A program made the translations under genes and the position numbers. A stretch of DNA of 51,083 nucleotides, taken from IMG/VR virus record IMGVR_UViG_2541047841_000011. One strand, given 5' to 3'. This document shows, in pieces, positions 1 to 45,968 of the stretch (position 1 is the stretch's first letter; every line of letters starts with the position of its first letter). Source of the DNA: a virus (Duplodnaviria > Heunggongvirae > Uroviricota > Caudoviricetes). Under the pieces are notes generated by a model. The model made no database searches and was not told the origin of the DNA. It was given only the letters and a program-made list of their open reading frames with translations.

Positions 1-1005
1 TTAATCCCCCGTGGACACTGCGTGGACACTTACGCCACCTTTCAGCGGATTAAGGGCCACCGCATCCTGCAGGTAATCCGGTGCAAAATGCGCATATGCC
101 ATTGTTTGCTGAATGGTTGCGTGACCAAGAATCTTCTGAAGCGCAATAATGTTTCCTCCGTTCATCACAAAATGGCTGGCGAACGTATGCCGCAGCACAT
201 GTGCAGCCTGGCCTTTTGGTAAATCGGGCTTAACTCTTTTCAGCGCCAGGCAGAATTCCCGGTACTTCACCTCAAACAAGCCGCCTGTTTCTCTGGTTTT
301 GATCGCCTCACAAACTGCCTGCGAAATTGGCACTGTTCTCTTCCGGCCATTTTTGGTTTCAAGAAACGTTACACGGTTATGAACTATCTGTTCACCACGA
401 AGCTTACAAGCTTCACTCCAGCGCGCCCCTGTGCTTAAACACAAAAGCGCAACACGCCAGTAGTCGCCCTCCAGTGTATCGAGCAATAGCGCCACTTCCT
501 TCTGTGACAGGAACGCCATTTCTCGTGGAGATACATAAAGAATAGAAATTCCCCTTACTGGATGTTCTGCATCCCAAAGACCTATTTTTTTCAGCACGGT
601 AAACATTCCGGATAACCGATTCATGTACCTGTTAGCAGATGACGGTTTCAATCCTTCAGCTATCTTTTGAGAACGCCACGCGATAATTTTCAGCTTATCA
701 AGATCCACAGCCTGCATATCAGCGCCAAGCTCATTGATTATGTTGCGCAGTTGTTTTCGGTCTTCTTCCGCCTTACGCCTGTGCTGGCCGTGATACATCC
801 ACCACAACTCAAGCAAATCATTTAGCGTTCGACGATCACGGTAGCCCTGTATATATTCCCGCTTTTCAGCGTTCGCCATGATGTAGCGTTCAGTGGCCAC
901 CGCTACCGATTTTTTGTCAAATACCTTACGCACGCGCTTTCCCTTGCGTCCGTTCGGCCTGATGTCCAGCAAATAACGACCATCTTCGAGCTTCTTAATC
1001 GACAT
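1..1005 (-). CDS. int: Tyrosine integrase, P2 Int-like
   Basis: ORF 1..1020 (TTG at 1018-1020); likely ATG start at 1003-1005 preceded by GGAGGG; C-terminal catalytic box HVLRHTFASHF...GHATIQQTMAYAHF; N-terminus MSIKKLEDGRY resembles P2-type integrases; window starts at its stop codon. Confidence 0.93.
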   Translation of the reverse strand: MSIKKLEDGRYLLDIRPNGRKGKRVRKVFDKKSVAVATERYIMANAEKREYIQGYRDRRTLNDLLELWWMYHGQHRRKAEEDRKQLRNIINELGADMQAVDLDKLKIIAWRSQKIAEGLKPSSANRYMNRLSGMFTVLKKIGLWDAEHPVRGISILYVSPREMAFLSQKEVALLLDTLEGDYWRVALLCLSTGARWSEACKLRGEQIVHNRVTFLETKNGRKRTVPISQAVCEAIKTRETGGLFEVKYREFCLALKRVKPDLPKGQAAHVLRHTFASHFVMNGGNIIALQKILGHATIQQTMAYAHFAPDYLQDAVALNPLKGGVSVHAVSTGD

Positions 1006-5115: not shown

Positions 5116-7938
5116 ATGACGGCAGAGTACATCAGGGGCTGGCAACAACCGCGCCACGCAGTGGGGCGTGAAGGAACGGGGATCCCCGCTCCTGAATCCG
5201 CGCTTTCCTCCTGGCTGGATGCCTACCGGGTAGAGAACGAGCACCGCCAGGAAATGGCTGATGCGGCGTTCTCCGCAACGCCGCTGGGCAACCTGATTAA
5301 TAAAAGCCTGAACGCACAGGAAAAACAGGACAAAACCATCACACTGGCAGGAGATGCCAGAAAACAGGCACGCGGCGCGGTGGATGAAGCCATGGCCTCG
5401 CTGCGCCTGCTGCCGTCCTATCTGCGCGATCCGCTTATTCGCCACCTCTCCTTCCTGCGCAAAAAACAGGAAGCCGATCGTCAGAAAGGCAAAAAGAGCT
5501 GGCAGGCTGAACGCTACGCGCGCGGAAACCTGCGCAAAATATTCGAACGTCTGGATCGCACCGATCACCGCTGGCTGACACAGGGTTATCGCTCCCTTGC
5601 CGGACGCGAACGCCTGGACGATTTGCTTTACCTGCCGCAGCTCAACAAACACCAGATACAGACACTGGCCACCATGACGGCGGCGATGTTCAGCAGCACC
5701 TTCGAAAAACTCTGCGATGGCTTTGGCGCGACCGATGGCGAACTGACCATGGATGTAACGCTGAAGGCGTATCAGATGCTGGCCCGCATGGCGTTACACC
5801 TGCACGCCATGCCTCCACATTATGACGCACTGACAACAGACAAAGACCGGAGGAACGAACCGGACACGGAGCTGCTGCCGGGCGCAATCCTTCGCCTGAC
5901 CTGTGCAGAATGGTGGAAACGCAAACTGTGGCTGTTACGTTGCGAGTGGAGAGAAGAACAACTCCGCGCCGCCTGTCTGGTTTCCAGAAAAACATCGCCC
6001 TATCTGAGCCAGGACGCGTTAAGCGAGTTTCGCGCACAGCGCGAGAAAACACGCGATTTCCTGAAAAGTTTCATGCTGGAAAATGAAGACGGGTTCACGA
6101 TTGATCTCGAGACGGTGTATTACGCGGGAGTAAGTAACCCGGTTCACCGTAAGGCAGAAATGATGGCCACCATGAAGGGGCTGGAACTTCTGGCCGAAGC
6201 CCGTGGCGACAAAGCGGTGTTTCTGACTGTCACCTGCCCGTCAAAATACCACGCCACAACAGAGAACGGTCATCCGAATCCCAAATGGAACGGGGCCACC
6301 ATGCGCGACTCCAGCGATTACCTGGTTAACACGTTTTTTGCGGCGGTCCGCAAAAAACTGAACCGCGACGGTCTTCGCTGGTATGGCATCCGCACGGTGG
6401 AGCCTCACCATGACGGCACCGTGCACTGGCATATGATGGTCTTTGCGCATCCGGAAGAAATCGACAGCATCGTGGCCATCACCCGCGATATTGCCATTCA
6501 GGAAGACCGCCACGAGCTGGGCAATGATATTACTCCGCGCTTTAAGGCGGAGTATGTCGACGGCTCAAAAGGCACACCAACCAGCTATATCGCGACCTAC
6601 ATCGGAAAGAACCTGGACAGCCGCGCCGTGGATGGCATCGACCCGAAAACGGGCAAGCCACGCGTTGACCACGAAACCGGAAAATCAATGGCCGAGAGTG
6701 TGGAGCGCGCCATCGGCTGGGCGCGCCTTCATCGGGTCCGCCAGTTCCAGTTCTTTGGCATCCCCTCCCGTCAGGTGTGGCGTGAACTGCGCCGCCTTGC
6801 CAGCCAGATGGCACGCAACCCGGAAGGCCCGCAACGACTGAAAGATGACGCAATGGATGCGGTACTCGCTGCCGCCGATGCCGGGTGTTTTGCCACCTAC
6901 ATTGAAAAACAGGGCGGCGTACTTGTTCCACGCAAAGACTACCTGATTCGCACCGCCTACGACCTCGCAGATGAGCTGAATGATTACGGCGAACAGAGCG
7001 TACAGATTTACGGGATCTGGTCACCACTCATCGGGGAATCCTCCCGTGTGTGCACGCATCCGGATAACTGGAAACTGGTAAGACGTAAACCGGAAACGGA
7101 AGACAGCGCCCGCGAAAATGGTTTTGACCTTCAGGGCGGCCCTGCCGCCCCTTGGACTCGTGGCAATAACTGTCCCCGTGTACAGGAAACGGACAACAAC
7201 GGGACAGAACAGCCGGAAGAACGGCCAGCACCGTGGCCGCAGCTCCCTGACGGCGTTGAAGTGAACGAATGGATGCGCTCACTGAAACGACACGAACGCC
7301 GGGCGCTGATGCGTTCGCTTCGTGACAAACAGGCAAAAAACAGCAGCGATGAAATGCAGAGCTGGACACAGAGCCGCAAACAGCAGCGGCCTTTGCCTGA
7401 TAACCACGAATTACTCGCTAAAGAATGGCGGGAGTCTGCTGAATCTCTCGGCCTGCATATCGGTGAACAACAGATGCAGCACCTGTTACGGGGCGGCAGT
7501 CTGTACGTTGACGGCAGCATCATTGCACCGCAGGGATTTGAAATTGTACGCAAACCGGATACCCGCCCGGACAGCCGAATCACGCAGCTCTGGCAGCGCC
7601 TGAGCCGTAATCACGGCGTAAGCAGCACGGAGATCCGCCATAACCCGGTCTCCAGCTATCTGGCACAGCTCGGGGCATCAGACCCCGAAGCCGCCGCACG
7701 CCTGGCATCCACACTTCAGCAGGTCCAGAACACCATGAAAACACCCGTTACCGTGCTTTCTGACATGCTGCGCGCCATTCGTGACGCAGAGCACGCACAG
7801 AGAATCAGAGAAACCACTGAACGCGCCCGCCGCAAAGCAAACCTGCTGAGGACTGGCCTGACCAGTGGAAACAAAAAACAGACAGAAACGGGATTCACAA
7901 ATCCCGTAAATGAGCAAAAAACGCGCCGCGATATATGA
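5116..7938 (+). CDS. A: Rolling-circle replication initiator (P2 gpA-like HUH endonuclease), 940 aa
   Basis: HUH motif TVHWHMMVF and paired-tyrosine motif YIATYIGKN (YxxxY) typical of superfamily-I RCR initiators; position matches P2 A; about 300 extra C-terminal residues. Confidence 0.88.
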   Translation: MTAEYIRGWQQPRHAVGREGTGIPAPESALSSWLDAYRVENEHRQEMADAAFSATPLGNLINKSLNAQEKQDKTITLAGDARKQARGAVDEAMASLRLLPSYLRDPLIRHLSFLRKKQEADRQKGKKSWQAERYARGNLRKIFERLDRTDHRWLTQGYRSLAGRERLDDLLYLPQLNKHQIQTLATMTAAMFSSTFEKLCDGFGATDGELTMDVTLKAYQMLARMALHLHAMPPHYDALTTDKDRRNEPDTELLPGAILRLTCAEWWKRKLWLLRCEWREEQLRAACLVSRKTSPYLSQDALSEFRAQREKTRDFLKSFMLENEDGFTIDLETVYYAGVSNPVHRKAEMMATMKGLELLAEARGDKAVFLTVTCPSKYHATTENGHPNPKWNGATMRDSSDYLVNTFFAAVRKKLNRDGLRWYGIRTVEPHHDGTVHWHMMVFAHPEEIDSIVAITRDIAIQEDRHELGNDITPRFKAEYVDGSKGTPTSYIATYIGKNLDSRAVDGIDPKTGKPRVDHETGKSMAESVERAIGWARLHRVRQFQFFGIPSRQVWRELRRLASQMARNPEGPQRLKDDAMDAVLAAADAGCFATYIEKQGGVLVPRKDYLIRTAYDLADELNDYGEQSVQIYGIWSPLIGESSRVCTHPDNWKLVRRKPETEDSARENGFDLQGGPAAPWTRGNNCPRVQETDNNGTEQPEERPAPWPQLPDGVEVNEWMRSLKRHERRALMRSLRDKQAKNSSDEMQSWTQSRKQQRPLPDNHELLAKEWRESAESLGLHIGEQQMQHLLRGGSLYVDGSIIAPQGFEIVRKPDTRPDSRITQLWQRLSRNHGVSSTEIRHNPVSSYLAQLGASDPEAAARLASTLQQVQNTMKTPVTVLSDMLRAIRDAEHAQRIRETTERARRKANLLRTGLTSGNKKQTETGFTNPVNEQKTRRDI

Positions 7939-7983
7939 AGCGCGCACAAAACAGGCGAAAGCGGGATTTAAAAATCCCGTAAA
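7871..7983. repeat. Two 40-bp direct repeats, each with an 18-bp palindrome (parC-like centromere or ori element)
   Basis: Unit 1 at 7871..7910 (inside gpA 3-prime end) and unit 2 at 7944..7983 match at 32/40; each contains CGGGATT(T/C)A(A/C)AAATCCCG; lies directly upstream of the ParM-like gene. Mirror 43101..43213. Confidence 0.5.
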
Positions 7984-8014
7984 CGGTTAATTAACCAACA
8001 TAAGGAAAATCGAC

Positions 8015-8974
8015 ATGAAAATTTGTATCGACGACGGCTCCACCAACATCAAGCTGGCATGGACTGAGAATGGCGAACGCCGCAACGCCATCAGCCCGAA
8101 CAGCTTCAAGTCGGAATGGTCTGCGCCGTTCGGTGGCATGCAGCCCGCGAACTACATGCTTGATGGCGTGCGCTATGGTTTTGATCCGGTCAGCGATCGC
8201 TTTGTCCAGACGACCGACACGCAATACCAGTACAGCGATGTGAATGTAATCGCCATTCATCACGCGCTGGTCAAATCAGGCATCACGCCACAAGAGGTGG
8301 ATGTGGTTGTCACCCTGCCACTGAGCGAGTATTTCGAGACAAACGCACAGCCGGACATGGCCAACATCAACCGCAAAAAAGCGAACGTTATGCGCTCGGT
8401 GGAGTACCAGAACGGCGAAGCATTCACTATCCGTAACGTGCGGGTTATGCCTGAATCCATTCCGGCTGGCTTTAAAGCACTGGCTGACATGAGTCCGTTT
8501 GAATCCCTGCTGATTGTGGATTTAGGCGGAACCACGCTGGATGTGGCAAAGGTTCAAGGGCAACTGGCAGGTATCAGCCAGGTGTTTTGCGATCCACACG
8601 TAGGCGTTTCCCTGATGGCCGATGCCGTACTGTCGGTGATGGCCACTAACGGTATGCGCACCAGTCACCACATCGCCAATACCATTATCGAACATCGCCA
8701 TGATGAAGCCTGGCTGCGCCAGCACATCCACAATGACGCGCATTACGCCAGCCTGATGGCGGTTATTCGTGAAAAGGAAGAAACACTGAAACAACGCGTG
8801 ATCCGCGCGCTGGCGGTTTTTTCGGGTTACGGGCGGGTGATGGTTGTCGGTGGAGGGGCGGAGATTGTGGCACCCGCTATCCGCGAAGTCTGCGGAGTTA
8901 ATGCGACTTTCATCGCGGACGGGGTGCCACAGTTTGCTCTGGTTAATGGGCTGTACGCAATGGACAAGGAGTAA
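8015..8974 (+). CDS. parM: ParM/StbA-like actin-fold ATPase
   Basis: Actin-fold motifs IDDGSTNIK (phosphate 1), VDLGGTTLD (phosphate 2), VGGGAE (adenosine); length 319 aa as for ParM. Confidence 0.78.
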   Translation: MKICIDDGSTNIKLAWTENGERRNAISPNSFKSEWSAPFGGMQPANYMLDGVRYGFDPVSDRFVQTTDTQYQYSDVNVIAIHHALVKSGITPQEVDVVVTLPLSEYFETNAQPDMANINRKKANVMRSVEYQNGEAFTIRNVRVMPESIPAGFKALADMSPFESLLIVDLGGTTLDVAKVQGQLAGISQVFCDPHVGVSLMADAVLSVMATNGMRTSHHIANTIIEHRHDEAWLRQHIHNDAHYASLMAVIREKEETLKQRVIRALAVFSGYGRVMVVGGGAEIVAPAIREVCGVNATFIADGVPQFALVNGLYAMDKE

Positions 8975-8978
8975 ACCA

Positions 8979-9293
8979 ATGACGACACCAACCAGACGGA
9001 TAAGTTTCTATCTGAAGCCCGCCGCCGTCAAGAGTGAACAGGAGGCGTGCAATTACCTCGATAGCCTGCCAGCCTCCGAACGCAGCCGCGCGCAACGCGC
9101 GGCCTTTCTGGCTGGGCTAGCGCTCATAAAGCGCAACCCAGCATTTGCCTACTGGATGGCCGAATGGCCAGAGGACAACCTCCCCTTCAATACCGTTAGC
9201 ATCAAGGAAACATACCAGGATAATCAGCCTAGCGGAGTTGAATGCAATTTTTATAAAATTGCAAAGAATATTCAGACCTTATTCCCAGAATAA
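8979..9293 (+). CDS. parR: ParR-like centromere-binding adaptor
   Basis: Internal ATG of ORF 8844..9293 with AGGAG RBS; RRISFYLKP...ERSRAQRAAFLAGLAL matches the ParR ribbon-helix-helix N-terminus; immediately downstream of the ParM-like gene. Confidence 0.68.
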   Translation: MTTPTRRISFYLKPAAVKSEQEACNYLDSLPASERSRAQRAAFLAGLALIKRNPAFAYWMAEWPEDNLPFNTVSIKETYQDNQPSGVECNFYKIAKNIQTLFPE

Positions 9294-9341: not shown

Positions 9342-9366
9342 TGGCACCCTTGCTAACAGGGTGCCA
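9342..9366. terminator. Bidirectional hairpin between parR-like gene and convergent cargo operon
   Basis: TGGCACCCT-TGCTAAC-AGGGTGCCA, 9-bp perfect stem, between convergent stops at 9293 and 9377. Mirror 41718..41742. Confidence 0.5.
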
Positions 9367-9376: not shown

Positions 9377-10219
9377 TCATGATGAAATTGCCGAAGTTTT
9401 TTTATCGTGCTGAAGTACCGCAAATGCCATTAAAACCTCAAGAGAATAGCGGCGATAATACTTAACAAAACCATAATAAAATACTCGGGATGCAGCAATA
9501 CAAAACAAGAGAAGAAAACAAAAAGGTAACAGTCTGATATTTATATCTATTAAAAAGGATAGAAGGAGCAGGAACATAAGCAACCAGACTGAAGCGAGAA
9601 AAACAAATGTAATGTTTCTACAAAAACCATACAAAGCAACATAGTTTTGCATTTTCACCTGATGATTTTTAGAATGTTCATACACATAATGATAAGCAAG
9701 GCGAAAAAGATCGCCCCTCAAGCCCTTACGTCGATATAGCGTAGATACAGAAAAAACATTTATATAACCATCTCGTATTTGCGGCCAAAAGACTTTAATA
9801 AGTATAGAATGCAGTGTGGTTTTATGATGTTCTGCTTTATCAAAAGCTGATACAGGAAATAAAAAAACTCCACGAATAAAATTAACTATACTGAACTTAG
9901 TATTATGTCGTTTTATTTTCAGGGAGCTTCTTTTAGAAAACAGATAAATTGAAGGATACCCAAGTTTACTGTTCATGTATTTTTCAATTAAACAGGATGA
10001 TAGAATAGATATGAAGTGACCTGAAATATATGATAGAACGATTAATACCACATATATAAATACACTTATTATTTCTTTATATTTCAGGATATGGTTAAGA
10101 ATACCTTCTATATAAACAGGGTTAATTTCAATAGAAAACAAAAAAAGGATAAACAGGAATAACCCACCTGGAATTAGATAGCCCAAAAAGTCATAAAATG
10201 AAAACGGATTCTGTGTCAC
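9377..10219 (-). CDS. Polytopic membrane protein (280 aa), unknown function; low-GC cargo
   Basis: GTG start with GGGGGAAG RBS; at least 4 hydrophobic helices (e.g. FLGYLIPGGLFLFILFLF, IISVFIYVVLIVLSYISGHFISIL, ITFVFLASVWLLMFLLLLSFLI, LLPFCFLLLFCIAASRVFYYGF); GC about 30-35 percent against about 55 percent in the backbone. Confidence 0.7.
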   Translation of the reverse strand: MTQNPFSFYDFLGYLIPGGLFLFILFLFSIEINPVYIEGILNHILKYKEIISVFIYVVLIVLSYISGHFISILSSCLIEKYMNSKLGYPSIYLFSKRSSLKIKRHNTKFSIVNFIRGVFLFPVSAFDKAEHHKTTLHSILIKVFWPQIRDGYINVFSVSTLYRRKGLRGDLFRLAYHYVYEHSKNHQVKMQNYVALYGFCRNITFVFLASVWLLMFLLLLSFLIDINIRLLPFCFLLLFCIAASRVFYYGFVKYYRRYSLEVLMAFAVLQHDKKTSAISS

Positions 10220-10258: not shown

Positions 10259-10756
10259 TTATTTGTTTTTCCGTAAAGGATTAGCTTTCCATCTTCTTAC
10301 TAACCATTCGAATTCTTGATATGTAGTATCCGAATTAATGCTTTCTCTGATTGCTTTAATTAATGGCTCGGCAATATCATATGTCTCTACAACTGTTGTG
10401 TAAGATGTTCTTTTTATCATTTTTTCATCATAAATACCTTCACGAATACTTACAGCAACTCGCTCGTAAAAATTTAAAATATATTGAAATTTTCGGCGCT
10501 CGGCCATTTCTTCATCTGTTATTATGCAACCATCACAAGGAAAAACATAAGAACGAAATGATTTGCCTGAACGATGCACTTGTTTCAGGGTATGCAATGA
10601 CTCTATATATTGCATATCTTGCCGACTCTCAAAAAGAAAGTTGGCCGTTTGAGTTTTTTTTGCGGTACGCACATTGTAGATAATGGTTCCAATGGCAACC
10701 AAAACGCCAAGCAGAACAATAGTATTGCTGATGATTTGTAGTGTTATTGGGTTCAT
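10259..10756 (-). CDS. Single-pass membrane protein (165 aa) with soluble C-terminal domain, unknown function; low-GC cargo
   Basis: N-terminal helix ITLQIISNTIVLLGVLVAIGTIIYNV then charged domain with CDGC motif; 39 bp upstream of the 280-aa gene on same strand, so likely an operon. Confidence 0.7.
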   Translation of the reverse strand: MNPITLQIISNTIVLLGVLVAIGTIIYNVRTAKKTQTANFLFESRQDMQYIESLHTLKQVHRSGKSFRSYVFPCDGCIITDEEMAERRKFQYILNFYERVAVSIREGIYDEKMIKRTSYTTVVETYDIAEPLIKAIRESINSDTTYQEFEWLVRRWKANPLRKNK

Positions 10757-21191: not shown

Positions 21192-22088
21192 ATGCCTGCC
21201 GTTGACCTTTCCCAGTTACCGGAACCCGCCATCATCGCGGAGCCTGACTTTGAGGCAATTCTGGCTGACACAAAGGCCATGATGATTGCGGCTTATCACG
21301 CCGAACAGCGTGAAGCCGTTTCCGCCGCGCTGGAGCTGGAATCGGAACCCCTGAACGTTATCGCCCAGACAACAGCGTTTCGTGAAATGCTGTTACGCCA
21401 GCGGGTCAATGAGGGGGCACGCGCCTGCATGTTAAGCCACAGCGCCGGGACAGACCTGGACAACCTCGCGGGCAATATGAACACAAAGCGCCTGACCATC
21501 ACTCCGGCAACGGATACCACCGACGCAGTGATGGAAAGTGACACCTCGCTGAGACTGCGGGCGCAGCGGGCGTACGATGGCCTGAGTGTTGCTGGCCCGT
21601 CAGGTGCATACGAGTATTTTGCCCGCAGCGCCAGCGGTCTGGTGCGTGATGCGCGGGCTATCAGTCCGTCTCCGGCAAATGTGACGGTTTCCATTCTGTC
21701 CACTGAAGGCGACGGCACAGCAACGGAGGCGTTGCTTAATACCGTTCGCGCCGTTCTGAATGCAGAGGACACCCGCCCGGTGGCCGACCGCCTGACCGTA
21801 CAGAGCGCCAGAATCGTGACATGGCGGCTGAATGCAAAACTGTACTTTTACCCCGGTCCGGAATCCGAACCTATTCTGGCTGCGGCGGAATCGTCGTTCA
21901 GGAAGTGGCTGGCTGAGCAGGGGCTTATCGGTCAGGACGTGGCGTTGTCCGCCATTGCTGCCGCACTGCATGTGCACGGTGTGCAACGCGTGGAGATAAT
22001 CGAACCCACACAGAATATGGCCATCAGCGACATACAGGCGGCGCGCTGTGAGTCATTCACCATCAGCGAAGGTGGGCGCAATGAGTAA
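21192..22088 (+). CDS. J: Baseplate assembly protein (P2 gpJ-like)
   Basis: 298 aa; GGGAG RBS; synteny. Confidence 0.88.
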   Translation: MPAVDLSQLPEPAIIAEPDFEAILADTKAMMIAAYHAEQREAVSAALELESEPLNVIAQTTAFREMLLRQRVNEGARACMLSHSAGTDLDNLAGNMNTKRLTITPATDTTDAVMESDTSLRLRAQRAYDGLSVAGPSGAYEYFARSASGLVRDARAISPSPANVTVSILSTEGDGTATEALLNTVRAVLNAEDTRPVADRLTVQSARIVTWRLNAKLYFYPGPESEPILAAAESSFRKWLAEQGLIGQDVALSAIAAALHVHGVQRVEIIEPTQNMAISDIQAARCESFTISEGGRNE

Positions 22089-22611
22089 TTCGTTGTTACC
22101 ACCATCAGCCAGCAATTTCATGCGTTGTGCCGAAGCCGTCGGAACACGCATTACAGACATTCCGGTAGACCTCAACACACTGTGGTCGCCGGATACCTGC
22201 CCGGTGCATCTGCTGCCCTATCTCGCCTGGGCATTTTCCGTTGACCGCTGGGATCGCAACTGGCCGGAAGAGACAAAGCGACAGGTTATTCGTGATGCAT
22301 GGCTGATACACCGACACAAAGGGACCATCAGCGCACTGCGCAGGGCCATTGAGCCGCTGGGATACCTCATTCGCGTGTCTGAGTGGTGGGAGTTCGGCGG
22401 AGAACCGGGAACATTTACCGTTGAAGTCGGCACACTGGACAGTGGCGTGACGGAGGAAATGTATCTGGAAATGGAGCGGTTGATTGCTGATGCCCGCCCG
22501 GTCAGCCGCCACATGACAGGGCTGAATATCATTCAGGAAATTCCGGGGGATATTTTCGCAGCGGCGGCAACTTATGACGGTGAAGTTATTACCATTTATC
22601 CGGACGATTAA
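22081..22611 (+). CDS. I: Baseplate protein (P2 gpI-like)
   Basis: ATG at 22081 inside ORF 22048..22611 gives 176 aa; overlaps J stop. Confidence 0.83.
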   Translation: MSNSLLPPSASNFMRCAEAVGTRITDIPVDLNTLWSPDTCPVHLLPYLAWAFSVDRWDRNWPEETKRQVIRDAWLIHRHKGTISALRRAIEPLGYLIRVSEWWEFGGEPGTFTVEVGTLDSGVTEEMYLEMERLIADARPVSRHMTGLNIIQEIPGDIFAAAATYDGEVITIYPDD

Positions 22612-22613
22612 GC

Positions 22614-24848
22614 ATGAGTACCACAACACGAAAATTTAAAACCGTTATCACCGATACAGGTGCAAAAAAATTAGCTCAGGCAGCCGCGCCAGATGGTAAG
22701 CCTGTCCGCCTGACTCATATGGCCGTGGGCGACGGTGGCGGCACGTTGCCCACACCAGACAGTAAGCAGACCCGTCTGGTGCATGAGGTGTGGCGACACA
22801 CTGTTAATCGCGTCATCCTGGACGCAACACATCAGAACCGCATTATTGCGGAGCTGGTTATACCTCCTGAAACGGGCGGATTCTGGATCCGGGAAATTGG
22901 TGTATTTGATGAGCACGGCGATTTAATCGCGGTGGGCAATACTGCCGAAAGTTACAAGCCAACCGTTGCCGAGGGGTCCGGACGTGCACAAACATTTCGC
23001 ACCATTCTGACCGTATCCAGCACTGCCAGCGTGGCGCTTACCGTGGATAACACCATGGTGATGGCCACAGTGGATTACGTGGATGACAAACTGAAAGAGC
23101 ATGAACAGTCACGACGTCACCCGGATGCCTCGCTGACCGCAAAAGGCTTTGTTCAACTCAGTAGCGCCACTAACAGCGATTCTGAAACGCTGGCCGCAAC
23201 GCCGAAAGCGGTTAAGGCCGCGTATGACCTGGCTAACGGAAAATATACCGCTCAGGACGCCACGACGGCACGAAAAGGGATAGTCCAGCTCAGCAGTGCA
23301 ACCAACAGCACGTCTGAAACGCAGGCTGCAACGCCGAAAGCAGTAAAGGCGGCATATGACCTTGCTAACGCAAAATATACCGCTCAGGACGCAACGACGG
23401 CACGAAAAGGGATAGTTCAGCTCAGTAGCGCCACTAACAGCCCGTCTGAAACGCTGGCTGCGACACCAAAAGCGGTTAAGGCGGTAATGGATGAAACGAA
23501 CAAGAAAGCGCCTTTAAACAGTCCTGCGCTGACCGGAACGCCAACAACGCCAACTGCGCGACAGGGAACGAATAATACCCAAATCGCAAGCACGGCTTTC
23601 GTTATGGCTGCGATTGCCGCCCTTGTAGATTCGTCACCTGACGCACTGAATACGCTGAACAAGTTAGCGGCGGCGCTGGGAAACGACCCGAATTTTGCGA
23701 CCACCATGACTAACGCGCTTGCGGGTAAGCAACCGAAAGATGCCACCCTGACGGCGCTGGCCGGGCTTGCTACTGCGGCAGACAGGTTTCCGTATTTTAC
23801 GGGGAATGATGTCGCCAGCCTGGCAACCCTGACAAAAGTCGGGCGGGATATTCTTGCGAAATCGACCGTTGCTGCCGTTATCGAATACCTCGGTTTACAG
23901 GAAACGGTAAATCAGGCTTCTGGCGCATTACAGAAAAACCAGAACGGCGCAGATATTCCGGGTAAAGATACCTTCACCAAAAACATTGGTGCCTGCCGCG
24001 CATATAGCGCATGGCTGAATATTGGTGGCGATAGTCAGGTCTGGACAACTGCGCAATTTATTTCGTGGCTGGAGAGTCAGGGGGCATTTAACCATCCTTA
24101 CTGGATGTGCAAAGGCTCATGGGCTTATGCAAATAATAAGGTCATTACAGATACAGGTTGCGGAAATATTTGTCTTGCAGGTGCTGTGGTGGAAGTTATT
24201 GGCACTCGCGGCGCAATGACCATACGCGTTACTACGCCGAGTACGTCCAGCGGCGGCGGAATTACTAACGCTCAATTCACCTATATTAATCATGGTGATG
24301 CTTATGCTCCTGGCTGGCGACGAGACTACAACACGAAAAACCAGCAGCCTGCATTTGCTTTAGGGCAAACAGGACGCAGGGTCGCAAATGATAAAGCTGT
24401 TGGCTGGAACTGGAATAGCGGTGTTTATGATGCAGATATCAGTGGTGCATCGACATTAATCCTCCACTTCAATATGAATGCGGGGAGTTGCCCTGCTGTA
24501 CAGTTCCGCGTGAATTACAGGAACGGCGGTATCTTTTATCGTTCAGCGCGTGATGGTTATGGCTTTGAAGCTAACTGGTCAGAGTTTTACACCACAACCC
24601 GCAAACCCTCTGCGGGGGATGTTGGTGCATATACGCAGGCAGAATGTAATTCAAGGTTTATTACAGGTATTCGCTTGGGCGGTCTGTCATCTGTTCAGAC
24701 ATGGAATGGTCCCGGCTGGTCTGACAGGTCAGGTTATGTCGTTACGGGTTCAGTTAACGGAAACCGTGATGAATTAATTGATACAACTCAGGCAAGGCCA
24801 GTTCAGTATTGCATTAATGGGACGTGGTATAACGCGGGGAGTATTTAA
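22614..24848 (+). CDS. H: Tail fibre protein H, variant 1 (constant N-terminus plus variable C-terminus Hv1)
   Basis: 744 aa; N-terminal part with 44-aa SSATNS...ATPKAVK repeats identical to the 842-aa mirror ORF up to ...[10 protein letters not shown]; C-terminus diverges after the 26-bp crossover site at 23878..23903. Confidence 0.9.
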   Translation: MSTTTRKFKTVITDTGAKKLAQAAAPDGKPVRLTHMAVGDGGGTLPTPDSKQTRLVHEVWRHTVNRVILDATHQNRIIAELVIPPETGGFWIREIGVFDEHGDLIAVGNTAESYKPTVAEGSGRAQTFRTILTVSSTASVALTVDNTMVMATVDYVDDKLKEHEQSRRHPDASLTAKGFVQLSSATNSDSETLAATPKAVKAAYDLANGKYTAQDATTARKGIVQLSSATNSTSETQAATPKAVKAAYDLANAKYTAQDATTARKGIVQLSSATNSPSETLAATPKAVKAVMDETNKKAPLNSPALTGTPTTPTARQGTNNTQIASTAFVMAAIAALVDSSPDALNTLNKLAAALGNDPNFATTMTNALAGKQPKDATLTALAGLATAADRFPYFTGNDVASLATLTKVGRDILAKSTVAAVIEYLGLQETVNQASGALQKNQNGADIPGKDTFTKNIGACRAYSAWLNIGGDSQVWTTAQFISWLESQGAFNHPYWMCKGSWAYANNKVITDTGCGNICLAGAVVEVIGTRGAMTIRVTTPSTSSGGGITNAQFTYINHGDAYAPGWRRDYNTKNQQPAFALGQTGRRVANDKAVGWNWNSGVYDADISGASTLILHFNMNAGSCPAVQFRVNYRNGGIFYRSARDGYGFEANWSEFYTTTRKPSAGDVGAYTQAECNSRFITGIRLGGLSSVQTWNGPGWSDRSGYVVTGSVNGNRDELIDTTQARPVQYCINGTWYNAGSI
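23141..23490 (+). repeat. 132-bp tandem repeat (2.6 units) inside tail fibre gene
   Basis: Units start at 23141, 23273, 23405; encode 44-aa fibre repeat [44 protein letters not shown]. Mirror 27594..27943. Confidence 0.85.
23878..23903. other. Left crossover site for a Gin/Hin/Cin/Pin-family serine invertase (gix-like)
   Basis: TTATCGAATACC-TC-GGTTTACAGGAA, a 12-2-12 imperfect palindrome matching the Din-family site as I recall it (Mu gix about TTATCCAAAACC-TC-GGTTTACAGGAA), at the constant/variable junction of the fibre gene. Confidence 0.75.
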
Positions 24849-24850
24849 CG

Positions 24851-25384
24851 ATGATGCACTTAAAAAACATTACTGCTGGCAACCCTAAAACAAAAGAGCA
24901 ATACCAGCTAACGAAACAATTTAACATCAAATGGCTTTATTCAGAGGATGGAAAAAACTGGTATGAGGAACAAAAGAATTTCCAGCCAGACACTTTGAAA
25001 ATGGTCTATGACCATAACGGCGTTATTATTTGTATTGAAAAGGATGTTTCAGCAATTAATCCGGAAGGCGCAAGCGTCGTTGAATTACCTGATATTACAG
25101 CAAATCGCCGTGCTGACATTTCGGGTAAATGGATGTTCAAAGATGGCGTAGTGGTAAAGCGAACTTATACCGAGGAAGAGCAGAGGCAGCAGGCGGAAAA
25201 TGAAAAGCAAAGCCTGCTACAGCTCGTCAGGGATAAAACCCAGCTATGGGACTCACAGCTACGGCTGGGCATCATTTCCGACGAGAATAAACAAAAATTA
25301 ACAGAGTGGATGCTCTTTGCGCAGAAAGTCGAATCTACAGACACTTCCAGCCTGCCAGTAACGTTTCCCGAACAACCAGAATGA
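24851..25384 (+). CDS. G: Tail fibre assembly protein, variant 1 (P2 gpG / Mu U-like)
   Basis: 177 aa, MMHLKNITAGNPKT...[14 protein letters not shown]; immediately follows Hv1. Confidence 0.85.
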   Translation: MMHLKNITAGNPKTKEQYQLTKQFNIKWLYSEDGKNWYEEQKNFQPDTLKMVYDHNGVIICIEKDVSAINPEGASVVELPDITANRRADISGKWMFKDGVVVKRTYTEEEQRQQAENEKQSLLQLVRDKTQLWDSQLRLGIISDENKQKLTEWMLFAQKVESTDTSSLPVTFPEQPE

Positions 25385-25387
25385 GAG

Positions 25388-41790: not shown

Positions 41791-42105
41791 TTATTCTGGG
41801 AATAAGGTCTGAATATTCTTTGCAATTTTATAAAAATTGCATTCAACTCCGCTAGGCTGATTATCCTGGTATGTTTCCTTGATGCTAACGGTATTGAAGG
41901 GGAGGTTGTCCTCTGGCCATTCGGCCATCCAGTAGGCAAATGCTGGGTTGCGCTTTATGAGCGCTAGCCCAGCCAGAAAGGCCGCGCGTTGCGCGCGGCT
42001 GCGTTCGGAGGCTGGCAGGCTATCGAGGTAATTGCACGCCTCCTGTTCACTCTTGACGGCGGCGGGCTTCAGATAGAAACTTATCCGTCTGGTTGGTGTC
42101 GTCAT
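41791..42105 (-). CDS. parR: ParR-like protein, mirror copy
   Basis: Exact inverted copy of 8979..9293. Confidence 0.68.
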   Translation of the reverse strand: MTTPTRRISFYLKPAAVKSEQEACNYLDSLPASERSRAQRAAFLAGLALIKRNPAFAYWMAEWPEDNLPFNTVSIKETYQDNQPSGVECNFYKIAKNIQTLFPE

Positions 42106-42109
42106 TGGT

Positions 42110-43069
42110 TTACTCCTTGTCCATTGCGTACAGCCCATTAACCAGAGCAAACTGTGGCACCCCGTCCGCGATGAAAGTCGCATTAACTCCGCAGACTTCG
42201 CGGATAGCGGGTGCCACAATCTCCGCCCCTCCACCGACAACCATCACCCGCCCGTAACCCGAAAAAACCGCCAGCGCGCGGATCACGCGTTGTTTCAGTG
42301 TTTCTTCCTTTTCACGAATAACCGCCATCAGGCTGGCGTAATGCGCGTCATTGTGGATGTGCTGGCGCAGCCAGGCTTCATCATGGCGATGTTCGATAAT
42401 GGTATTGGCGATGTGGTGACTGGTGCGCATACCGTTAGTGGCCATCACCGACAGTACGGCATCGGCCATCAGGGAAACGCCTACGTGTGGATCGCAAAAC
42501 ACCTGGCTGATACCTGCCAGTTGCCCTTGAACCTTTGCCACATCCAGCGTGGTTCCGCCTAAATCCACAATCAGCAGGGATTCAAACGGACTCATGTCAG
42601 CCAGTGCTTTAAAGCCAGCCGGAATGGATTCAGGCATAACCCGCACGTTACGGATAGTGAATGCTTCGCCGTTCTGGTACTCCACCGAGCGCATAACGTT
42701 CGCTTTTTTGCGGTTGATGTTGGCCATGTCCGGCTGTGCGTTTGTCTCGAAATACTCGCTCAGTGGCAGGGTGACAACCACATCCACCTCTTGTGGCGTG
42801 ATGCCTGATTTGACCAGCGCGTGATGAATGGCGATTACATTCACATCGCTGTACTGGTATTGCGTGTCGGTCGTCTGGACAAAGCGATCGCTGACCGGAT
42901 CAAAACCATAGCGCACGCCATCAAGCATGTAGTTCGCGGGCTGCATGCCACCGAACGGCGCAGACCATTCCGACTTGAAGCTGTTCGGGCTGATGGCGTT
43001 GCGGCGTTCGCCATTCTCAGTCCATGCCAGCTTGATGTTGGTGGAGCCGTCGTCGATACAAATTTTCAT
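42110..43069 (-). CDS. parM: ParM-like actin-fold ATPase, mirror copy
   Basis: Exact inverted copy of 8015..8974. Confidence 0.78.
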   Translation of the reverse strand: MKICIDDGSTNIKLAWTENGERRNAISPNSFKSEWSAPFGGMQPANYMLDGVRYGFDPVSDRFVQTTDTQYQYSDVNVIAIHHALVKSGITPQEVDVVVTLPLSEYFETNAQPDMANINRKKANVMRSVEYQNGEAFTIRNVRVMPESIPAGFKALADMSPFESLLIVDLGGTTLDVAKVQGQLAGISQVFCDPHVGVSLMADAVLSVMATNGMRTSHHIANTIIEHRHDEAWLRQHIHNDAHYASLMAVIREKEETLKQRVIRALAVFSGYGRVMVVGGGAEIVAPAIREVCGVNATFIADGVPQFALVNGLYAMDKE

Positions 43070-43145
43070 GTCGATTTTCCTTATGTTGGTTAATTAACCG
43101 TTTACGGGATTTTTAAATCCCGCTTTCGCCTGTTTTGTGCGCGCT

Positions 43146-45968
43146 TCATATATCGCGGCGCGTTTTTTGCTCATTTACGGGATTTGTGAATCCCGTTTCT
43201 GTCTGTTTTTTGTTTCCACTGGTCAGGCCAGTCCTCAGCAGGTTTGCTTTGCGGCGGGCGCGTTCAGTGGTTTCTCTGATTCTCTGTGCGTGCTCTGCGT
43301 CACGAATGGCGCGCAGCATGTCAGAAAGCACGGTAACGGGTGTTTTCATGGTGTTCTGGACCTGCTGAAGTGTGGATGCCAGGCGTGCGGCGGCTTCGGG
43401 GTCTGATGCCCCGAGCTGTGCCAGATAGCTGGAGACCGGGTTATGGCGGATCTCCGTGCTGCTTACGCCGTGATTACGGCTCAGGCGCTGCCAGAGCTGC
43501 GTGATTCGGCTGTCCGGGCGGGTATCCGGTTTGCGTACAATTTCAAATCCCTGCGGTGCAATGATGCTGCCGTCAACGTACAGACTGCCGCCCCGTAACA
43601 GGTGCTGCATCTGTTGTTCACCGATATGCAGGCCGAGAGATTCAGCAGACTCCCGCCATTCTTTAGCGAGTAATTCGTGGTTATCAGGCAAAGGCCGCTG
43701 CTGTTTGCGGCTCTGTGTCCAGCTCTGCATTTCATCGCTGCTGTTTTTTGCCTGTTTGTCACGAAGCGAACGCATCAGCGCCCGGCGTTCGTGTCGTTTC
43801 AGTGAGCGCATCCATTCGTTCACTTCAACGCCGTCAGGGAGCTGCGGCCACGGTGCTGGCCGTTCTTCCGGCTGTTCTGTCCCGTTGTTGTCCGTTTCCT
43901 GTACACGGGGACAGTTATTGCCACGAGTCCAAGGGGCGGCAGGGCCGCCCTGAAGGTCAAAACCATTTTCGCGGGCGCTGTCTTCCGTTTCCGGTTTACG
44001 TCTTACCAGTTTCCAGTTATCCGGATGCGTGCACACACGGGAGGATTCCCCGATGAGTGGTGACCAGATCCCGTAAATCTGTACGCTCTGTTCGCCGTAA
44101 TCATTCAGCTCATCTGCGAGGTCGTAGGCGGTGCGAATCAGGTAGTCTTTGCGTGGAACAAGTACGCCGCCCTGTTTTTCAATGTAGGTGGCAAAACACC
44201 CGGCATCGGCGGCAGCGAGTACCGCATCCATTGCGTCATCTTTCAGTCGTTGCGGGCCTTCCGGGTTGCGTGCCATCTGGCTGGCAAGGCGGCGCAGTTC
44301 ACGCCACACCTGACGGGAGGGGATGCCAAAGAACTGGAACTGGCGGACCCGATGAAGGCGCGCCCAGCCGATGGCGCGCTCCACACTCTCGGCCATTGAT
44401 TTTCCGGTTTCGTGGTCAACGCGTGGCTTGCCCGTTTTCGGGTCGATGCCATCCACGGCGCGGCTGTCCAGGTTCTTTCCGATGTAGGTCGCGATATAGC
44501 TGGTTGGTGTGCCTTTTGAGCCGTCGACATACTCCGCCTTAAAGCGCGGAGTAATATCATTGCCCAGCTCGTGGCGGTCTTCCTGAATGGCAATATCGCG
44601 GGTGATGGCCACGATGCTGTCGATTTCTTCCGGATGCGCAAAGACCATCATATGCCAGTGCACGGTGCCGTCATGGTGAGGCTCCACCGTGCGGATGCCA
44701 TACCAGCGAAGACCGTCGCGGTTCAGTTTTTTGCGGACCGCCGCAAAAAACGTGTTAACCAGGTAATCGCTGGAGTCGCGCATGGTGGCCCCGTTCCATT
44801 TGGGATTCGGATGACCGTTCTCTGTTGTGGCGTGGTATTTTGACGGGCAGGTGACAGTCAGAAACACCGCTTTGTCGCCACGGGCTTCGGCCAGAAGTTC
44901 CAGCCCCTTCATGGTGGCCATCATTTCTGCCTTACGGTGAACCGGGTTACTTACTCCCGCGTAATACACCGTCTCGAGATCAATCGTGAACCCGTCTTCA
45001 TTTTCCAGCATGAAACTTTTCAGGAAATCGCGTGTTTTCTCGCGCTGTGCGCGAAACTCGCTTAACGCGTCCTGGCTCAGATAGGGCGATGTTTTTCTGG
45101 AAACCAGACAGGCGGCGCGGAGTTGTTCTTCTCTCCACTCGCAACGTAACAGCCACAGTTTGCGTTTCCACCATTCTGCACAGGTCAGGCGAAGGATTGC
45201 GCCCGGCAGCAGCTCCGTGTCCGGTTCGTTCCTCCGGTCTTTGTCTGTTGTCAGTGCGTCATAATGTGGAGGCATGGCGTGCAGGTGTAACGCCATGCGG
45301 GCCAGCATCTGATACGCCTTCAGCGTTACATCCATGGTCAGTTCGCCATCGGTCGCGCCAAAGCCATCGCAGAGTTTTTCGAAGGTGCTGCTGAACATCG
45401 CCGCCGTCATGGTGGCCAGTGTCTGTATCTGGTGTTTGTTGAGCTGCGGCAGGTAAAGCAAATCGTCCAGGCGTTCGCGTCCGGCAAGGGAGCGATAACC
45501 CTGTGTCAGCCAGCGGTGATCGGTGCGATCCAGACGTTCGAATATTTTGCGCAGGTTTCCGCGCGCGTAGCGTTCAGCCTGCCAGCTCTTTTTGCCTTTC
45601 TGACGATCGGCTTCCTGTTTTTTGCGCAGGAAGGAGAGGTGGCGAATAAGCGGATCGCGCAGATAGGACGGCAGCAGGCGCAGCGAGGCCATGGCTTCAT
45701 CCACCGCGCCGCGTGCCTGTTTTCTGGCATCTCCTGCCAGTGTGATGGTTTTGTCCTGTTTTTCCTGTGCGTTCAGGCTTTTATTAATCAGGTTGCCCAG
45801 CGGCGTTGCGGAGAACGCCGCATCAGCCATTTCCTGGCGGTGCTCGTTCTCTACCCGGTAGGCATCCAGCCAGGAGGAAAGCGCGGATTCAGGAGCGGGG
45901 ATCCCCGTTCCTTCACGCCCCACTGCGTGGCGCGGTTGTTGCCAGCCCCTGATGTACTCTGCCGTCAT
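43146..45968 (-). CDS. A: Rolling-circle replication initiator gpA-like, mirror copy
   Basis: Exact inverted copy of 5116..7938. Confidence 0.88.
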   Translation of the reverse strand: MTAEYIRGWQQPRHAVGREGTGIPAPESALSSWLDAYRVENEHRQEMADAAFSATPLGNLINKSLNAQEKQDKTITLAGDARKQARGAVDEAMASLRLLPSYLRDPLIRHLSFLRKKQEADRQKGKKSWQAERYARGNLRKIFERLDRTDHRWLTQGYRSLAGRERLDDLLYLPQLNKHQIQTLATMTAAMFSSTFEKLCDGFGATDGELTMDVTLKAYQMLARMALHLHAMPPHYDALTTDKDRRNEPDTELLPGAILRLTCAEWWKRKLWLLRCEWREEQLRAACLVSRKTSPYLSQDALSEFRAQREKTRDFLKSFMLENEDGFTIDLETVYYAGVSNPVHRKAEMMATMKGLELLAEARGDKAVFLTVTCPSKYHATTENGHPNPKWNGATMRDSSDYLVNTFFAAVRKKLNRDGLRWYGIRTVEPHHDGTVHWHMMVFAHPEEIDSIVAITRDIAIQEDRHELGNDITPRFKAEYVDGSKGTPTSYIATYIGKNLDSRAVDGIDPKTGKPRVDHETGKSMAESVERAIGWARLHRVRQFQFFGIPSRQVWRELRRLASQMARNPEGPQRLKDDAMDAVLAAADAGCFATYIEKQGGVLVPRKDYLIRTAYDLADELNDYGEQSVQIYGIWSPLIGESSRVCTHPDNWKLVRRKPETEDSARENGFDLQGGPAAPWTRGNNCPRVQETDNNGTEQPEERPAPWPQLPDGVEVNEWMRSLKRHERRALMRSLRDKQAKNSSDEMQSWTQSRKQQRPLPDNHELLAKEWRESAESLGLHIGEQQMQHLLRGGSLYVDGSIIAPQGFEIVRKPDTRPDSRITQLWQRLSRNHGVSSTEIRHNPVSSYLAQLGASDPEAAARLASTLQQVQNTMKTPVTVLSDMLRAIRDAEHAQRIRETTERARRKANLLRTGLTSGNKKQTETGFTNPVNEQKTRRDI

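Follow-up and report, generated by a model that had tools for sequence, protein, structure and literature searches.

What does a plasmid-type partition cassette do in a temperate phage that integrates into the chromosome of its host? This question is raised by the window (the whole stretch of 51,083 nucleotides that was analysed), whose element is a P88-like (Xuanwuvirus) P2-type temperate phage with int and cox, both of which had been proposed in an earlier sequence-only reading and were confirmed by Pfam. The window is a near-perfect inverted duplication, in which position p complements position 51084-p for p = 1 to 23896. This fold-back is an assembly artefact, and the second copy of the locus at 41791-43213 is its product and no independent element. 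The features concerned are listed below.

1-1005, minus strand: int (Pfam)
1536-1823: cox (Pfam)
5116..7938, plus strand: gpA replication endonuclease, 940 aa (Pfam Phage_GPA, 3.3e-131; RefSeq 'replication endonuclease' on identical sequence)
7872..7910, plus strand: direct repeat 1, within the gpA coding sequence at its 3' end (repeat search)
7889-7906: site 1, an 18-bp palindrome, CGGGATTCACAAATCCCG, with a GGG-N10-CCC core, in direct repeat 1, about -125 from the parM ATG
7945..7983, plus strand: direct repeat 2, intergenic, in the gpA-parM spacer (repeat search)
7962-7979: site 2, the palindrome CGGGATTTAAAAATCCCG, in direct repeat 2, about -52 from the parM ATG
7987..7994, plus strand: conserved TTAATTAA box (TTAATyAA in relatives), downstream of site 2 and about 25 nt upstream of the ATG
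8015..8974, plus strand: parM, predicted R1-type actin-like segregation ATPase, 319 aa (Pfam PF06406 and PF21523, PDB 1mwk, PHROG 691)
8979..9293, plus strand: parR, small adaptor, predicted to be centromere-binding and of ribbon-helix-helix type, 104 aa (Pfam PF10784, PHROG 2515, pB171 ParR 2jd3)
41791..43213, minus strand: the whole locus again, as a mirror image (produced by the fold-back of the window)

The locus runs from gpA, the final essential gene of the early operon (stop codon at 7936-7938), through the two repeats, one of them in the 3' end of gpA itself, to parM and parR. The gpA-parM spacer measures 76 nt, parR starts 5 nt past the parM stop with its ATG at 8979, and both downstream ORFs are intact (8015-8974, 319 aa; 8979-9293, 104 aa). 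As far as its sequence tells, the type II (ParMRC-type) partition cassette is genuine and intact, and it closes the early operon, directly after gpA. The cassette as such is already known: both genes are annotated by RefSeq, the partition system has been noted in the literature, and about a quarter of P2-like phages were reported to carry a putative partition system (Rousset et al. 2022, PMC9122126).

The ParM-like ATPase and ParR-like adaptor proposed from the letters alone were both recovered by profile search. The ATPase matched PF06406 (StbA_N; 1.4e-81, 272.5 bits against a cut-off of 24.6) and PF21523 (ParM C-terminal domain; 1e-68, 230.8 bits against a cut-off of 27.4), and it aligned with R1 ParM (PDB 1mwk) over residues 2-316, i.e., full length, with an E value of 3.1e-92. 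The residue-by-residue alignment with R1 ParM showed that the actin-fold nucleotide-binding motifs are kept, namely DDGSTNIK (phosphate-1), DLGGTTLD (phosphate-2) and GGGAE (adenosine). By homology, we therefore assign the protein as a full-length R1-type actin-like ATPase, about 46% identical to R1-like StbA. Its identity as a sugar kinase or an Hsp70-like protein, which had been named as a finding that would speak against partition, was considered and rejected on account of this close, full-length relationship. A parM of 319 codons was present in all 84 loci analysed, and dN/dS among 65 alleles is about 0.07, demonstrating strong purifying selection on the gene; parM and parR are in fact both under purifying selection.

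The adaptor matched PF10784 (Plasmid_stab_B) over residues 6-75 (7.4e-29, 99.8 bits against a cut-off of 25) and PHROG 2515 (1.2e-54), and its N-terminus (residues 6-57) gave a weak match to pB171 ParR (2jd3; E 0.012). The N-terminal strand RRISFYLKP is identical in every ParR allele, in keeping with a shared site, and its pattern is that of R1 ParR (RTIAFKLNP). The linker at about residues 66-92 is hypervariable, while the C-terminal tail KNIxxLFPE is conserved, and the tail motif +N(I/A)xxLFP(E/D) is kept from the P88-like ParRs to the R1 StbB-like protein (KKNAMKLIN; shared core +N(I/A)xxL) and other plasmid ParRs. We thus place the protein, on motif evidence, in the StbB/ParR family, with a predicted N-terminal DNA-binding strand and a C-terminal tail motif in common with R1 ParR. 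The AF2 monomer model has low confidence (pLDDT 58) and contains helices at residues 20-29, 37-52 and 54-61 and a C-terminal helix at 91-101; the N-terminal strand is absent from it, as expected for an obligate dimer. A readable parR occurs in 83 of 84 loci, one of these being truncated to 79 aa, and a recombination breakpoint at about codon 19 gives rise to two N-domain allele types.

Upstream of parM, the repeat search of the window returned two 39-nt direct repeats that are 82% identical and lie 73 nt apart from start to start, within 1 nt of the positions first given for them. Each contains an 18-bp palindrome of the pattern CGGGATT-N4-AATCCCG, for which, allowing two mismatches or fewer, 0.18 occurrences are expected in the window; the observed count was reached in none of 100 shuffles. 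Both sites are retained in 81 of 82 P88-like loci, and among the 65 distinct upstream sequences of these loci the arms of site 2 hardly change and its 4-nt spacer varies greatly. The spacing of the GGG-N10-CCC pair and its offset from the parM ATG are preserved in the window and P88 (-125/-52, spacing 73), in Hafnia (-128/-55, spacing 73) and in Plesiomonas (-131/-59, spacing 72). This conservation in three genera, despite diverged flanking sequence, favours a compact two-site ParR operator or centromere over RNA hairpins, and it lends further weight to the suggestion of a parC-like site or operator. Furthermore, an extra ORF separates gpA from parM in Hafnia and the sites still hold their distance to parM, indicating that they travel with the par cassette and not with gpA. 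The TTAATTAA box is an invariant island in the alignment of the window, P88, Hafnia and Plesiomonas, and may represent the -10 region of a parM promoter that is weak. Site 2 overlaps the presumed -35 region and is the candidate ParR operator. Scanning for consensus promoters gave no sigma-70 call ahead of parM, so it is position only that suggests the operator role.

The arrangement of these sites departs from what is described. Type II parC has been described as tandem repeats (PMC5016525), and in R1 the cis site is built from tandem direct iterons, an AT-rich array to either side of a strong promoter, whereas here a tandem direct iteron array is absent and only two 18-bp palindromes, 73 bp apart, occupy the 76-nt spacer and the end of gpA. 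R1-like, IncF, IncI and D6 loci have longer AT-rich or A/C-rich repeat regions, with A/C-rich repeats flanking the promoter in the R1-like locus. It may be that two palindromic sites are too few for a filament-capping segrosome and serve as an operator alone. Additionally, the Serratia and E. ludwigii relatives have different inverted repeats.

P88-like (Xuanwuvirus) phages and the P2-like temperate phages related to them have come to carry the cassette as a conserved module. The same locus is present in 1358 of 5426 complete E. coli genomes, in which 1514 of 1516 copies are chromosomal; it is 100% identical in the chromosomes of E. coli NR1430 and AH21F008 and shows 95.7-98.4% DNA identity across 14 deposited P88/Xuanwuvirus phage genomes. 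The P88/Xuanwuvirus prophages are the same element with allelic differences only, and P88 is mitomycin-inducible from the chromosome (PMC5285337). In line with the earlier remark that a partition system lies outside the canonical P2 backbone, 382 phage records hold a gpA homologue and a ParM of this type occurs only in the 14 P88-like records and in phage-plasmid D6. The synteny of gpA, zero to two ORFs, parM-parR, cargo and portal extends to P2-like prophages of Hafnia, Plesiomonas, Serratia and Enterobacter (E. ludwigii), whose ParMs are 53-62% identical, and gpA is 29-56% identical among the five genera. To the prior knowledge we add this gpA-parM-parR synteny in further genera, the conservation of the site pair in three genera, and the purifying selection on parM.

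Among known systems, parMRC (stbAB) of R1/R100 has the same order of cis site, parM and parR, with the cis site immediately upstream of parM. It differs in that the R1 replicon is a plasmid and the present one an integrating P2-like phage, in the length of ParR (117-140 aa versus 104 aa with a hypervariable linker here), and in ParM, which is here only about 46-51% identical to plasmid ParMs. The AlpC/AlpA/alpS system of prophage CGP3 in Corynebacterium (PMC4446434) likewise belongs to an integrated, inducible prophage and combines an actin-like ATPase with a DNA-binding adaptor transcribed together with it and with repeats in the operon promoter region. AlpAC is induced early, binds the promoter repeats, acts on excised circular phage DNA and is required for full phage DNA copy number (PMC4446434). 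The two genes stand there in the opposite order (alpA-alpC), alpS is made up of 24 short repeats (PMC4446434), and AlpA is not reported as a ParR-family protein. The likeness proposed here is one of function. Phage-plasmid D6 is also a tailed temperate phage with a plasmid partition cassette; its StbA is 47% identical to the present ParM, and its depositors noted the similarity to P88 StbA. Unlike the present phage, which integrates and has no plasmid replicon, D6 is without an integrated state, exists as a 91-kb plasmid prophage and carries iteron-type upstream repeats. Temperate tailed phage-plasmids of the P1/N15 type carry partition modules as well.

We consider the likeliest role of the cassette to be the positioning or segregation of transient circular phage genomes, and not stable plasmid lysogeny. 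The two palindromes, about seven helical turns apart, would be bound by ParR, and the pair would make up a compact parC that doubles as the operator of a weak parM promoter. Upon infection or induction, early transcription would run through gpA into parMR, because no plus-strand terminator-like site was found by scan between gpA and parM. ParR seated on the two sites would then capture the ends of ParM filaments via its C-terminal tail, and the growing filaments would push the circular phage genomes apart. P2-type rolling-circle replication yields monomeric circles, and the cassette would consequently position or segregate the phage genome while it is transiently plasmid-like, ahead of integration, following excision and in the course of lytic replication, with no part in the upkeep of a stable plasmid prophage. 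The dominance of the integrated state in the complete E. coli genomes speaks for this proposal, which also resembles, by analogy, the system of the CGP3 prophage; against it, the need for active segregation in a lytic or transient episomal stage is not obvious. Taken as a whole, from the two-site parC/operator to ParMR acting on transient circles, the proposal in our judgement stands an even chance of being right.

Segregation and positioning are compatible with, and do not exclude, a repurposing of ParMR for replication or another non-segregation role, in which it would stimulate the HUH nickase gpA, localise replication or packaging, or be a moron, expressed in lysogens, that acts on the host or on competing plasmids by way of partition incompatibility. 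The cassette sits tightly beside gpA in the five genera in spite of the divergence of gpA, R1 ParM and ParR physically stimulate the HUH relaxase TraI (PMC4949242), AlpAC is needed for replication efficiency and not for inheritance (PMC4446434), and a chromosomal ParMR of cyanobacteria is reported to have been turned into a cell-shape cytoskeleton (bioRxiv 10.1101/2025.06.27.661541). Nevertheless, every sequence feature of a working segregation system is kept and PADLOC returned no defence matches, so we regard such a role as unlikely.

The phage-plasmid lifestyle that the sequence-only reading had put forward, in which the prophage, instead of integrating, is kept and stably inherited as a low-copy plasmid, did not hold as the main reading, and we rate it as quite unlikely. 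The canonical function of ParMRC is indeed plasmid stabilisation, the possibility was raised by Rousset et al. (2022, PMC9122126), D6 carries the related ParM described above, and PLSDB has a single circular 'plasmid' record, NZ_CP148288.1 (34,461 bp), that is made up of a whole P88-like phage. However, P2-like phages without parMR also occur as phage-sized circular 'plasmid' records, so such records are probably excised or induced DNA. Nearly all copies are chromosomal, as given above; int, cox and the att end are kept, and no plasmid-type initiator or Rep is annotated in the identical NR1430 prophage. A real P2-like phage-plasmid, Arsenophonus paPv10, has RepA and a ParA-like ATPase replacing int, and no ParM. 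Moreover, for gpA replication to run, the early operon would have to be active, and in P2 this leads on to the expression of late genes and to lysis.

It also seems improbable that the repeats are RNA or transcriptional elements and not ParR sites, i.e., minus-strand intrinsic terminators or gpA-parM attenuators. Both palindromes fold stably as RNA (-10 to -12 kcal/mol), on the minus strand a T-rich tract, itself within the 39-nt repeat, comes after each hairpin, and 7907-7888 scored as terminator-like in the scan. Yet Hafnia and Plesiomonas keep only the outer GGG/CCC, leaving 3-4 bp stems with 10-nt loops that fold weakly, while spacing and parM distance are still conserved; arm variants in the P88 population are one-sided and show no compensatory changes, and no minus-strand gene immediately upstream needs termination. 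Finally, a decaying, plasmid-derived passenger hitch-hiking without phage function in the variable gpA-portal region, an accessory-cargo hotspot (PMC9122126), would fit the absence of the cassette from most P2-like phages, but is very improbable given the dN/dS of parM, the intact ORFs and sites in nearly all of about 84 loci, the position conserved across genera with ParM down to 53-62% identity, and invariant ParR tail and strand motifs beside a linker free to evolve.

Returning to the positioning of transient circles, we raise a bolder idea, possible but not probable: that this minimal ParMRC machine is a viral genome-positioning device in P2-like phages, with a two-site palindromic centromere that straddles the gpA stop codon, and is tied to gpA rolling-circle replication. 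Monomeric circles could be separated and localised by it so that they are replicated, packaged or integrated, and the HUH nickase gpA might be stimulated in the way that TraI is by ParM and ParR of R1. If true, the life cycle of a small and very common integrating coliphage would include an actin-based step.

The two genes that directly follow the P2 replication endonuclease gene gpA in this P88-like phage were read from the sequence alone as a type II ParM/ParR partition locus preceded by paired repeats, and database searches firmly support the assignment of both proteins. The elements of the cassette, with their positions in the window, are as follows.

5116-7938: 940-aa ORF upstream of parM, P2 replication endonuclease gpA (Pfam 3.3e-131)
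7872-7910: direct repeat 1, 39 nt, within the last codons of gpA
7889-7906: site 1, 18-bp palindrome CGGGATTCACAAATCCCG
7945-7983: direct repeat 2, 39 nt, within the 76-nt spacer preceding the 319-aa ORF
7962-7979: site 2, 18-bp palindrome CGGGATTTAAAAATCCCG
8015-8974, plus strand: parM, 319 aa; Pfam StbA_N 1.4e-81, ParM C-terminal domain 1e-68; PHROG 691 'partition protein'
8979-9293, plus strand: parR, 104 aa; Pfam PF10784 (Plasmid_stab_B, StbB/ParR family) 7.4e-29; PHROG 2515 1.2e-54

The Pfam matches of the parM product span the protein end to end, residues 2-316 align with plasmid R1 ParM in the PDB (E 3.1e-92), and the three actin-fold nucleotide-binding motifs (DDGSTNIK, DLGGTTLD and GGGAE) are all conserved, which identifies it as an R1-type ParM and not as a sugar kinase or Hsp70-like protein. 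Its partner, whose gene starts 5 nt past the parM ORF, is a ParR-family adaptor by both its Pfam and PHROG matches. In alignments with R1-like StbB, StbB of the phage-plasmid D6, two other plasmid ParRs and 28 protein-database homologues, it carries an invariant RRISFYLKP at the N-terminus, at the position of the ribbon-helix-helix DNA-reading strand, then helices in which R40, G46 and A48 are conserved, a hypervariable stretch (residues about 66-92) and a conserved C-terminal +N(I/A)xxLFP(E/D). This layout matches the description of ParR as an N-terminal ribbon-helix-helix domain with a C-terminal tail entering a hydrophobic ParM pocket (review, PMC5016525). The N-terminus also aligns weakly with the pB171 ParR structure 2jd3 (E 0.012), and a low-confidence AlphaFold2 monomer model (pLDDT 58), with predicted helices at 20-29, 37-52, 54-61 and 91-101 and disorder at 62-90, is only weakly supportive of the layout. 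PADLOC returned no defence-family match for ParM or ParR. Both genes are intact in nearly all P88-like loci, among which the 65 distinct parM alleles give a dN/dS of about 0.07. Within parR, a sharp recombination breakpoint sets the window apart from P88, from 9033 (codon about 19) to about 9400; dozens of ParR variants occur in E. coli prophages, with two N-domain allele types and a hypervariable linker of 25-30 residues, the first 18 and the last 8 or so residues being fixed across alleles.

The paired repeats with their palindromes lie, to within one base, where the sequence-only reading had placed them; a repeat search of the window shows them to be 82% identical and 73 nt apart from start to start. 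With at most two mismatches allowed, the expected number of CGGGATT-N4-AATCCCG occurrences in the window is 0.18, and the observed count was reached by no shuffle; the other copies of the palindrome are solely the mirror image of the same locus. When GGG-N10-CCY was scanned over the 260 nt upstream of parM, exactly two sites were found in each of the following phages (positions from the parM ATG).

Window and P88: -125 and -52, spacing 73
Hafnia phage: -128 and -55, spacing 73
Plesiomonas phage: -131 and -59, spacing 72

Over the same 260 nt, no such site was found in the Serratia or Enterobacter ludwigii phages, nor in four plasmid/D6 loci. In a four-way alignment of the window, P88, Hafnia and Plesiomonas sequences, little is conserved apart from a few invariant islands: both GGGA...CCC cores, and a TTAATyAA box that shortly precedes the ribosome-binding site. 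In the Hafnia phage a 167-aa ORF intervenes between gpA and parM and the distance from the sites to parM is unchanged, which argues that the sites are part of the par cassette and not of gpA. Both sites are kept in 81 of 82 P88-like loci, and in the P88 population the 4-nt spacer of site 2 is highly variable while its arms are almost invariant; one P88-like contig in IMG/VR is shorter by exactly one 73-bp unit, leaving a single palindromic site and a different gpA tail. The spacing of 72-73 bp corresponds to about seven helical turns and would leave the two sites facing the same side of the helix.

The ParMs that share this site type (Hafnia, Plesiomonas and window-type) are mutually closest relatives, and the Serratia and E. 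ludwigii pair forms a separate ParM subgroup with longer ParRs and different inverted repeats (GGGAAC...ATAGAAAAAT). That site type follows ParM subgroup and ParR length is, as far as sequence comparison goes, the pattern expected if ParR and its sites co-evolved. Among ParR alleles, no co-variation with the site variants was seen, the same variants occurring with both N-domain types, which fits a putative DNA-reading strand that is identical in all alleles.

What, then, are the repeats? The sequence-only reading had called them a plausible parC-like centromere or operator, and we consider them candidate ParR sites, a reading somewhat better than even. Its favourable side is the two-site architecture conserved in three genera, but the iteron array that defines parC is absent, since there are only two palindromic sites and a 76-nt spacer. 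Known type II centromeres are tandem direct repeats upstream of the operon, continuous or split by the promoter, whose DNA is wound around a superhelix of ParR dimers, each iteron taking one dimer (PMC5016525). The R1-like locus examined has A/C-rich repeats on either side of the promoter, and at the D6 and IncF/IncI loci the repeat region is long and AT-rich, unlike the P88-like locus. The two sites could thus be a minimal centromere or an operator only. It is unlikely that the palindromes act instead as RNA hairpins or terminators: those of the window do fold as RNA at -10 to -12 kcal/mol, each is followed on the minus strand by a T-rich tract, and one site scored as terminator-like, but in Hafnia and Plesiomonas the stem is down to 3-4 bp of GGG/CCC around a 10-nt loop and the folds are weak, arm polymorphisms are one-sided without compensation, and no minus-strand gene ends at the palindromes. 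A reading of the repeat flanks as R1-like 11-bp iterons rich in A/C (AAACAAAAAAC and similar) was rejected because these flanks are not conserved in Hafnia and Plesiomonas.

A search with an unverified version of the P2 ori nick sequence gave no match, which is uninformative. The promoter scan called no sigma-70 promoter upstream of parM, and no plus-strand terminator was found between gpA and parM, so that read-through from the early promoter is the simplest source of parMR expression; a weak ParR-controlled promoter may possibly lie at the TTAATTAA box. An inverted repeat at 9342-9366 (TGGCACCC-N9-GGGTGCCA), uncalled by the terminator scan, lies between the convergent parR and cargo genes and may be a bidirectional transcription stop.

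Over its first 23.9 kb the window matches a chromosomal prophage of E. coli NR1430 at 100% identity. RefSeq annotates this prophage in the order int, repressor-like HTH protein, cox, early genes, gpA, ParM, 'plasmid partitioning/stability family protein' and two cargo genes, followed by the portal, terminase, capsid and tail genes. Pfam confirmed int and cox in the window, in agreement with the integrating-phage context first proposed. The cargo between parR and portal (9377-10219 and 10259-10756, both minus strand) occupies a known P2 defence hotspot and is unlike that of P88; one gene encodes a multi-pass membrane protein of 280 aa that PADLOC matches weakly to Csx27 (1.1e-5), the other a DUF4760 protein.

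The window itself folds back: each position p from 1 to 23896 is the complement of position 51084-p, giving the parts below.

1-23896 and 27188-51083: arms, the right being the exact reverse complement of the left
23897-27187: unique centre
41791-43213: second copy of the parMR locus, a mirror image and not a second cassette
22614-24848 (+), 24851-25384 (+), 25413-25940 (-), 25942-28470 (-): two tail-fibre and assembly gene sets facing each other

Positions 23874-29084 are the reverse complement of NR1430 prophage positions 22000-27210, and the centre is an invertible tail-fibre segment in the orientation opposite to NR1430. The contig runs from int through gpA-parMR to the tail-fibre gene H, across the flipped segment and back along the same arm; the real prophage also has invertase, sheath, tube, D and ogr genes, which the contig lacks. 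Most likely the fold-back is an assembly artefact arising from both segment orientations in the reads. The alternative tail-fibre genes (744 and 842 aa) share an N-terminal constant part, have an assembly gene each and are a host-range switch of the Mu G / P1 C type.

The locus is 95.7-98.4% identical across 14 deposited phage genomes (P88, phiSM, 520873, P884B11 and others; Xuanwuvirus, Peduoviridae). That it lies outside the P2 backbone, as the sequence-only reading had it, is borne out by phage records: a gpA homologue occurs in 382 of them, whereas the window ParM is found only in the 14 P88-like phages and in the plasmid prophage D6 (47% identity). Plasmid ParMs reach at most about 51% identity. 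The related-locus search of GTDB and IMG/VR returned only ParMs of 97-100% identity, and the more distant relatives came from the protein search (Hafnia 62%, Plesiomonas 62%, Serratia 58%, E. ludwigii 53%). All four are in P2-like prophages with gpA, 0-2 small ORFs, parM, parR, variable cargo, (ogr and) portal and terminase. Their gpAs are 29-56% identical to that of the window and do not track ParM similarity, which implies that the par module was either retained through extensive mosaic exchange or repeatedly moved into the same slot. A 226-kb contig labelled Vagococcus sp. WN89Y, a Gram-positive (NZ_JBQPOM010000071.1), carries a 97%-identical ParM with enterobacterial P88-like flanks and is probably Enterobacteriaceae DNA contaminating that assembly.

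A phage-plasmid lifestyle, in which the cassette maintains a stable plasmid prophage, was among the roles first suggested; we regard it as improbable, and a stable plasmid prophage is not supported. The locus occurs in 1358 of 5426 complete E. coli genomes and is chromosomal in 1514 of 1516 places; int, cox and the att end are retained, and the NR1430 prophage annotation contains no plasmid initiator. P88, too, came from a chromosomal prophage, which was induced with mitomycin C (PMC5285337). In favour of the plasmid, an E. coli record of 34,461 bp (NZ_CP148288.1), entered as a circular, non-mobilisable 'plasmid', consists of an entire P88-like phage, but P2-like phages lacking parMR also have phage-sized circular records, so that we discounted it as episomal evidence; such records are probably excised or replicating DNA caught by assembly. 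This circle closes between int and the ogr/hok/dam side in an attP-like form, and several genes missing from its gene table suggest frameshifted pseudogenes. The complete P2-like genome deposited as the circular plasmid paPv10 of Arsenophonus nasoniae (NZ_CP123514.1, 33,818 bp) looks like a genuine P2-type phage-plasmid with a different maintenance module: beside the repressor/cox region, at the position of the absent integrase, it has 'replication initiator protein A' (RepA) and an AAA (ParA-like) ATPase, and no ParM. Just past ogr, close to the att end of the real prophage (L001, 35224-35364, outside the window), there is a Hok/Gef toxin gene, a second plasmid-type stability function (post-segregational killing).

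Since P2-type phages replicate into monomeric circles and the cassette stands at the end of the replication operon, we favour a role on the transient extrachromosomal phage genome, after infection or excision and during replication. More speculatively, ParM and ParR might stimulate gpA, which we take to be an HUH nickase like TraI in class. TraI, an HUH relaxase, is bound and stimulated by the ParM and ParR of R1 (PMC4949242). The closest functional precedent for the P88-like parMR is AlpC/AlpA/alpS of the integrated CGP3 prophage, which is expressed early in induction; AlpA recognises repeats that lie in its own promoter region and tethers the circular DNA of the phage to filaments of AlpC, and on deletion the phage copy number falls by half (PMC4446434).

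With both genes in RefSeq and a putative partition system in P2-like phages noted by Rousset et al. 2022 (PMC9122126), the locus was already known. It is annotated, its function is a testable question, and literature searches turned up no paper on what ParM does in P88 or P2-like phages. To our knowledge, the conserved two-site GGG-N10-CCC architecture, its conservation across genera, the domain and allele structure of ParR and the quantitative argument against a plasmid lifestyle have not been described; these additions on sites, ParR alleles and lifestyle are incremental. Nevertheless, the cassette puts an actin-like segregation machine of an integrating phage into about a quarter of complete E. 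coli genomes and, since P88 can be induced and forms plaques, the system lends itself to genetic study under either reading. We know of cytoskeleton-assisted handling of viral DNA so far only from PhuZ of jumbo phages and AlpC of a corynephage. Should the cassette occasionally maintain a plasmid, it would bear on the interconversion of integrative phages and phage-plasmids; if it acts on the transient circle, such handling would extend to ordinary small temperate coliphages, by way of a two-site centromere far smaller than plasmid iteron arrays.
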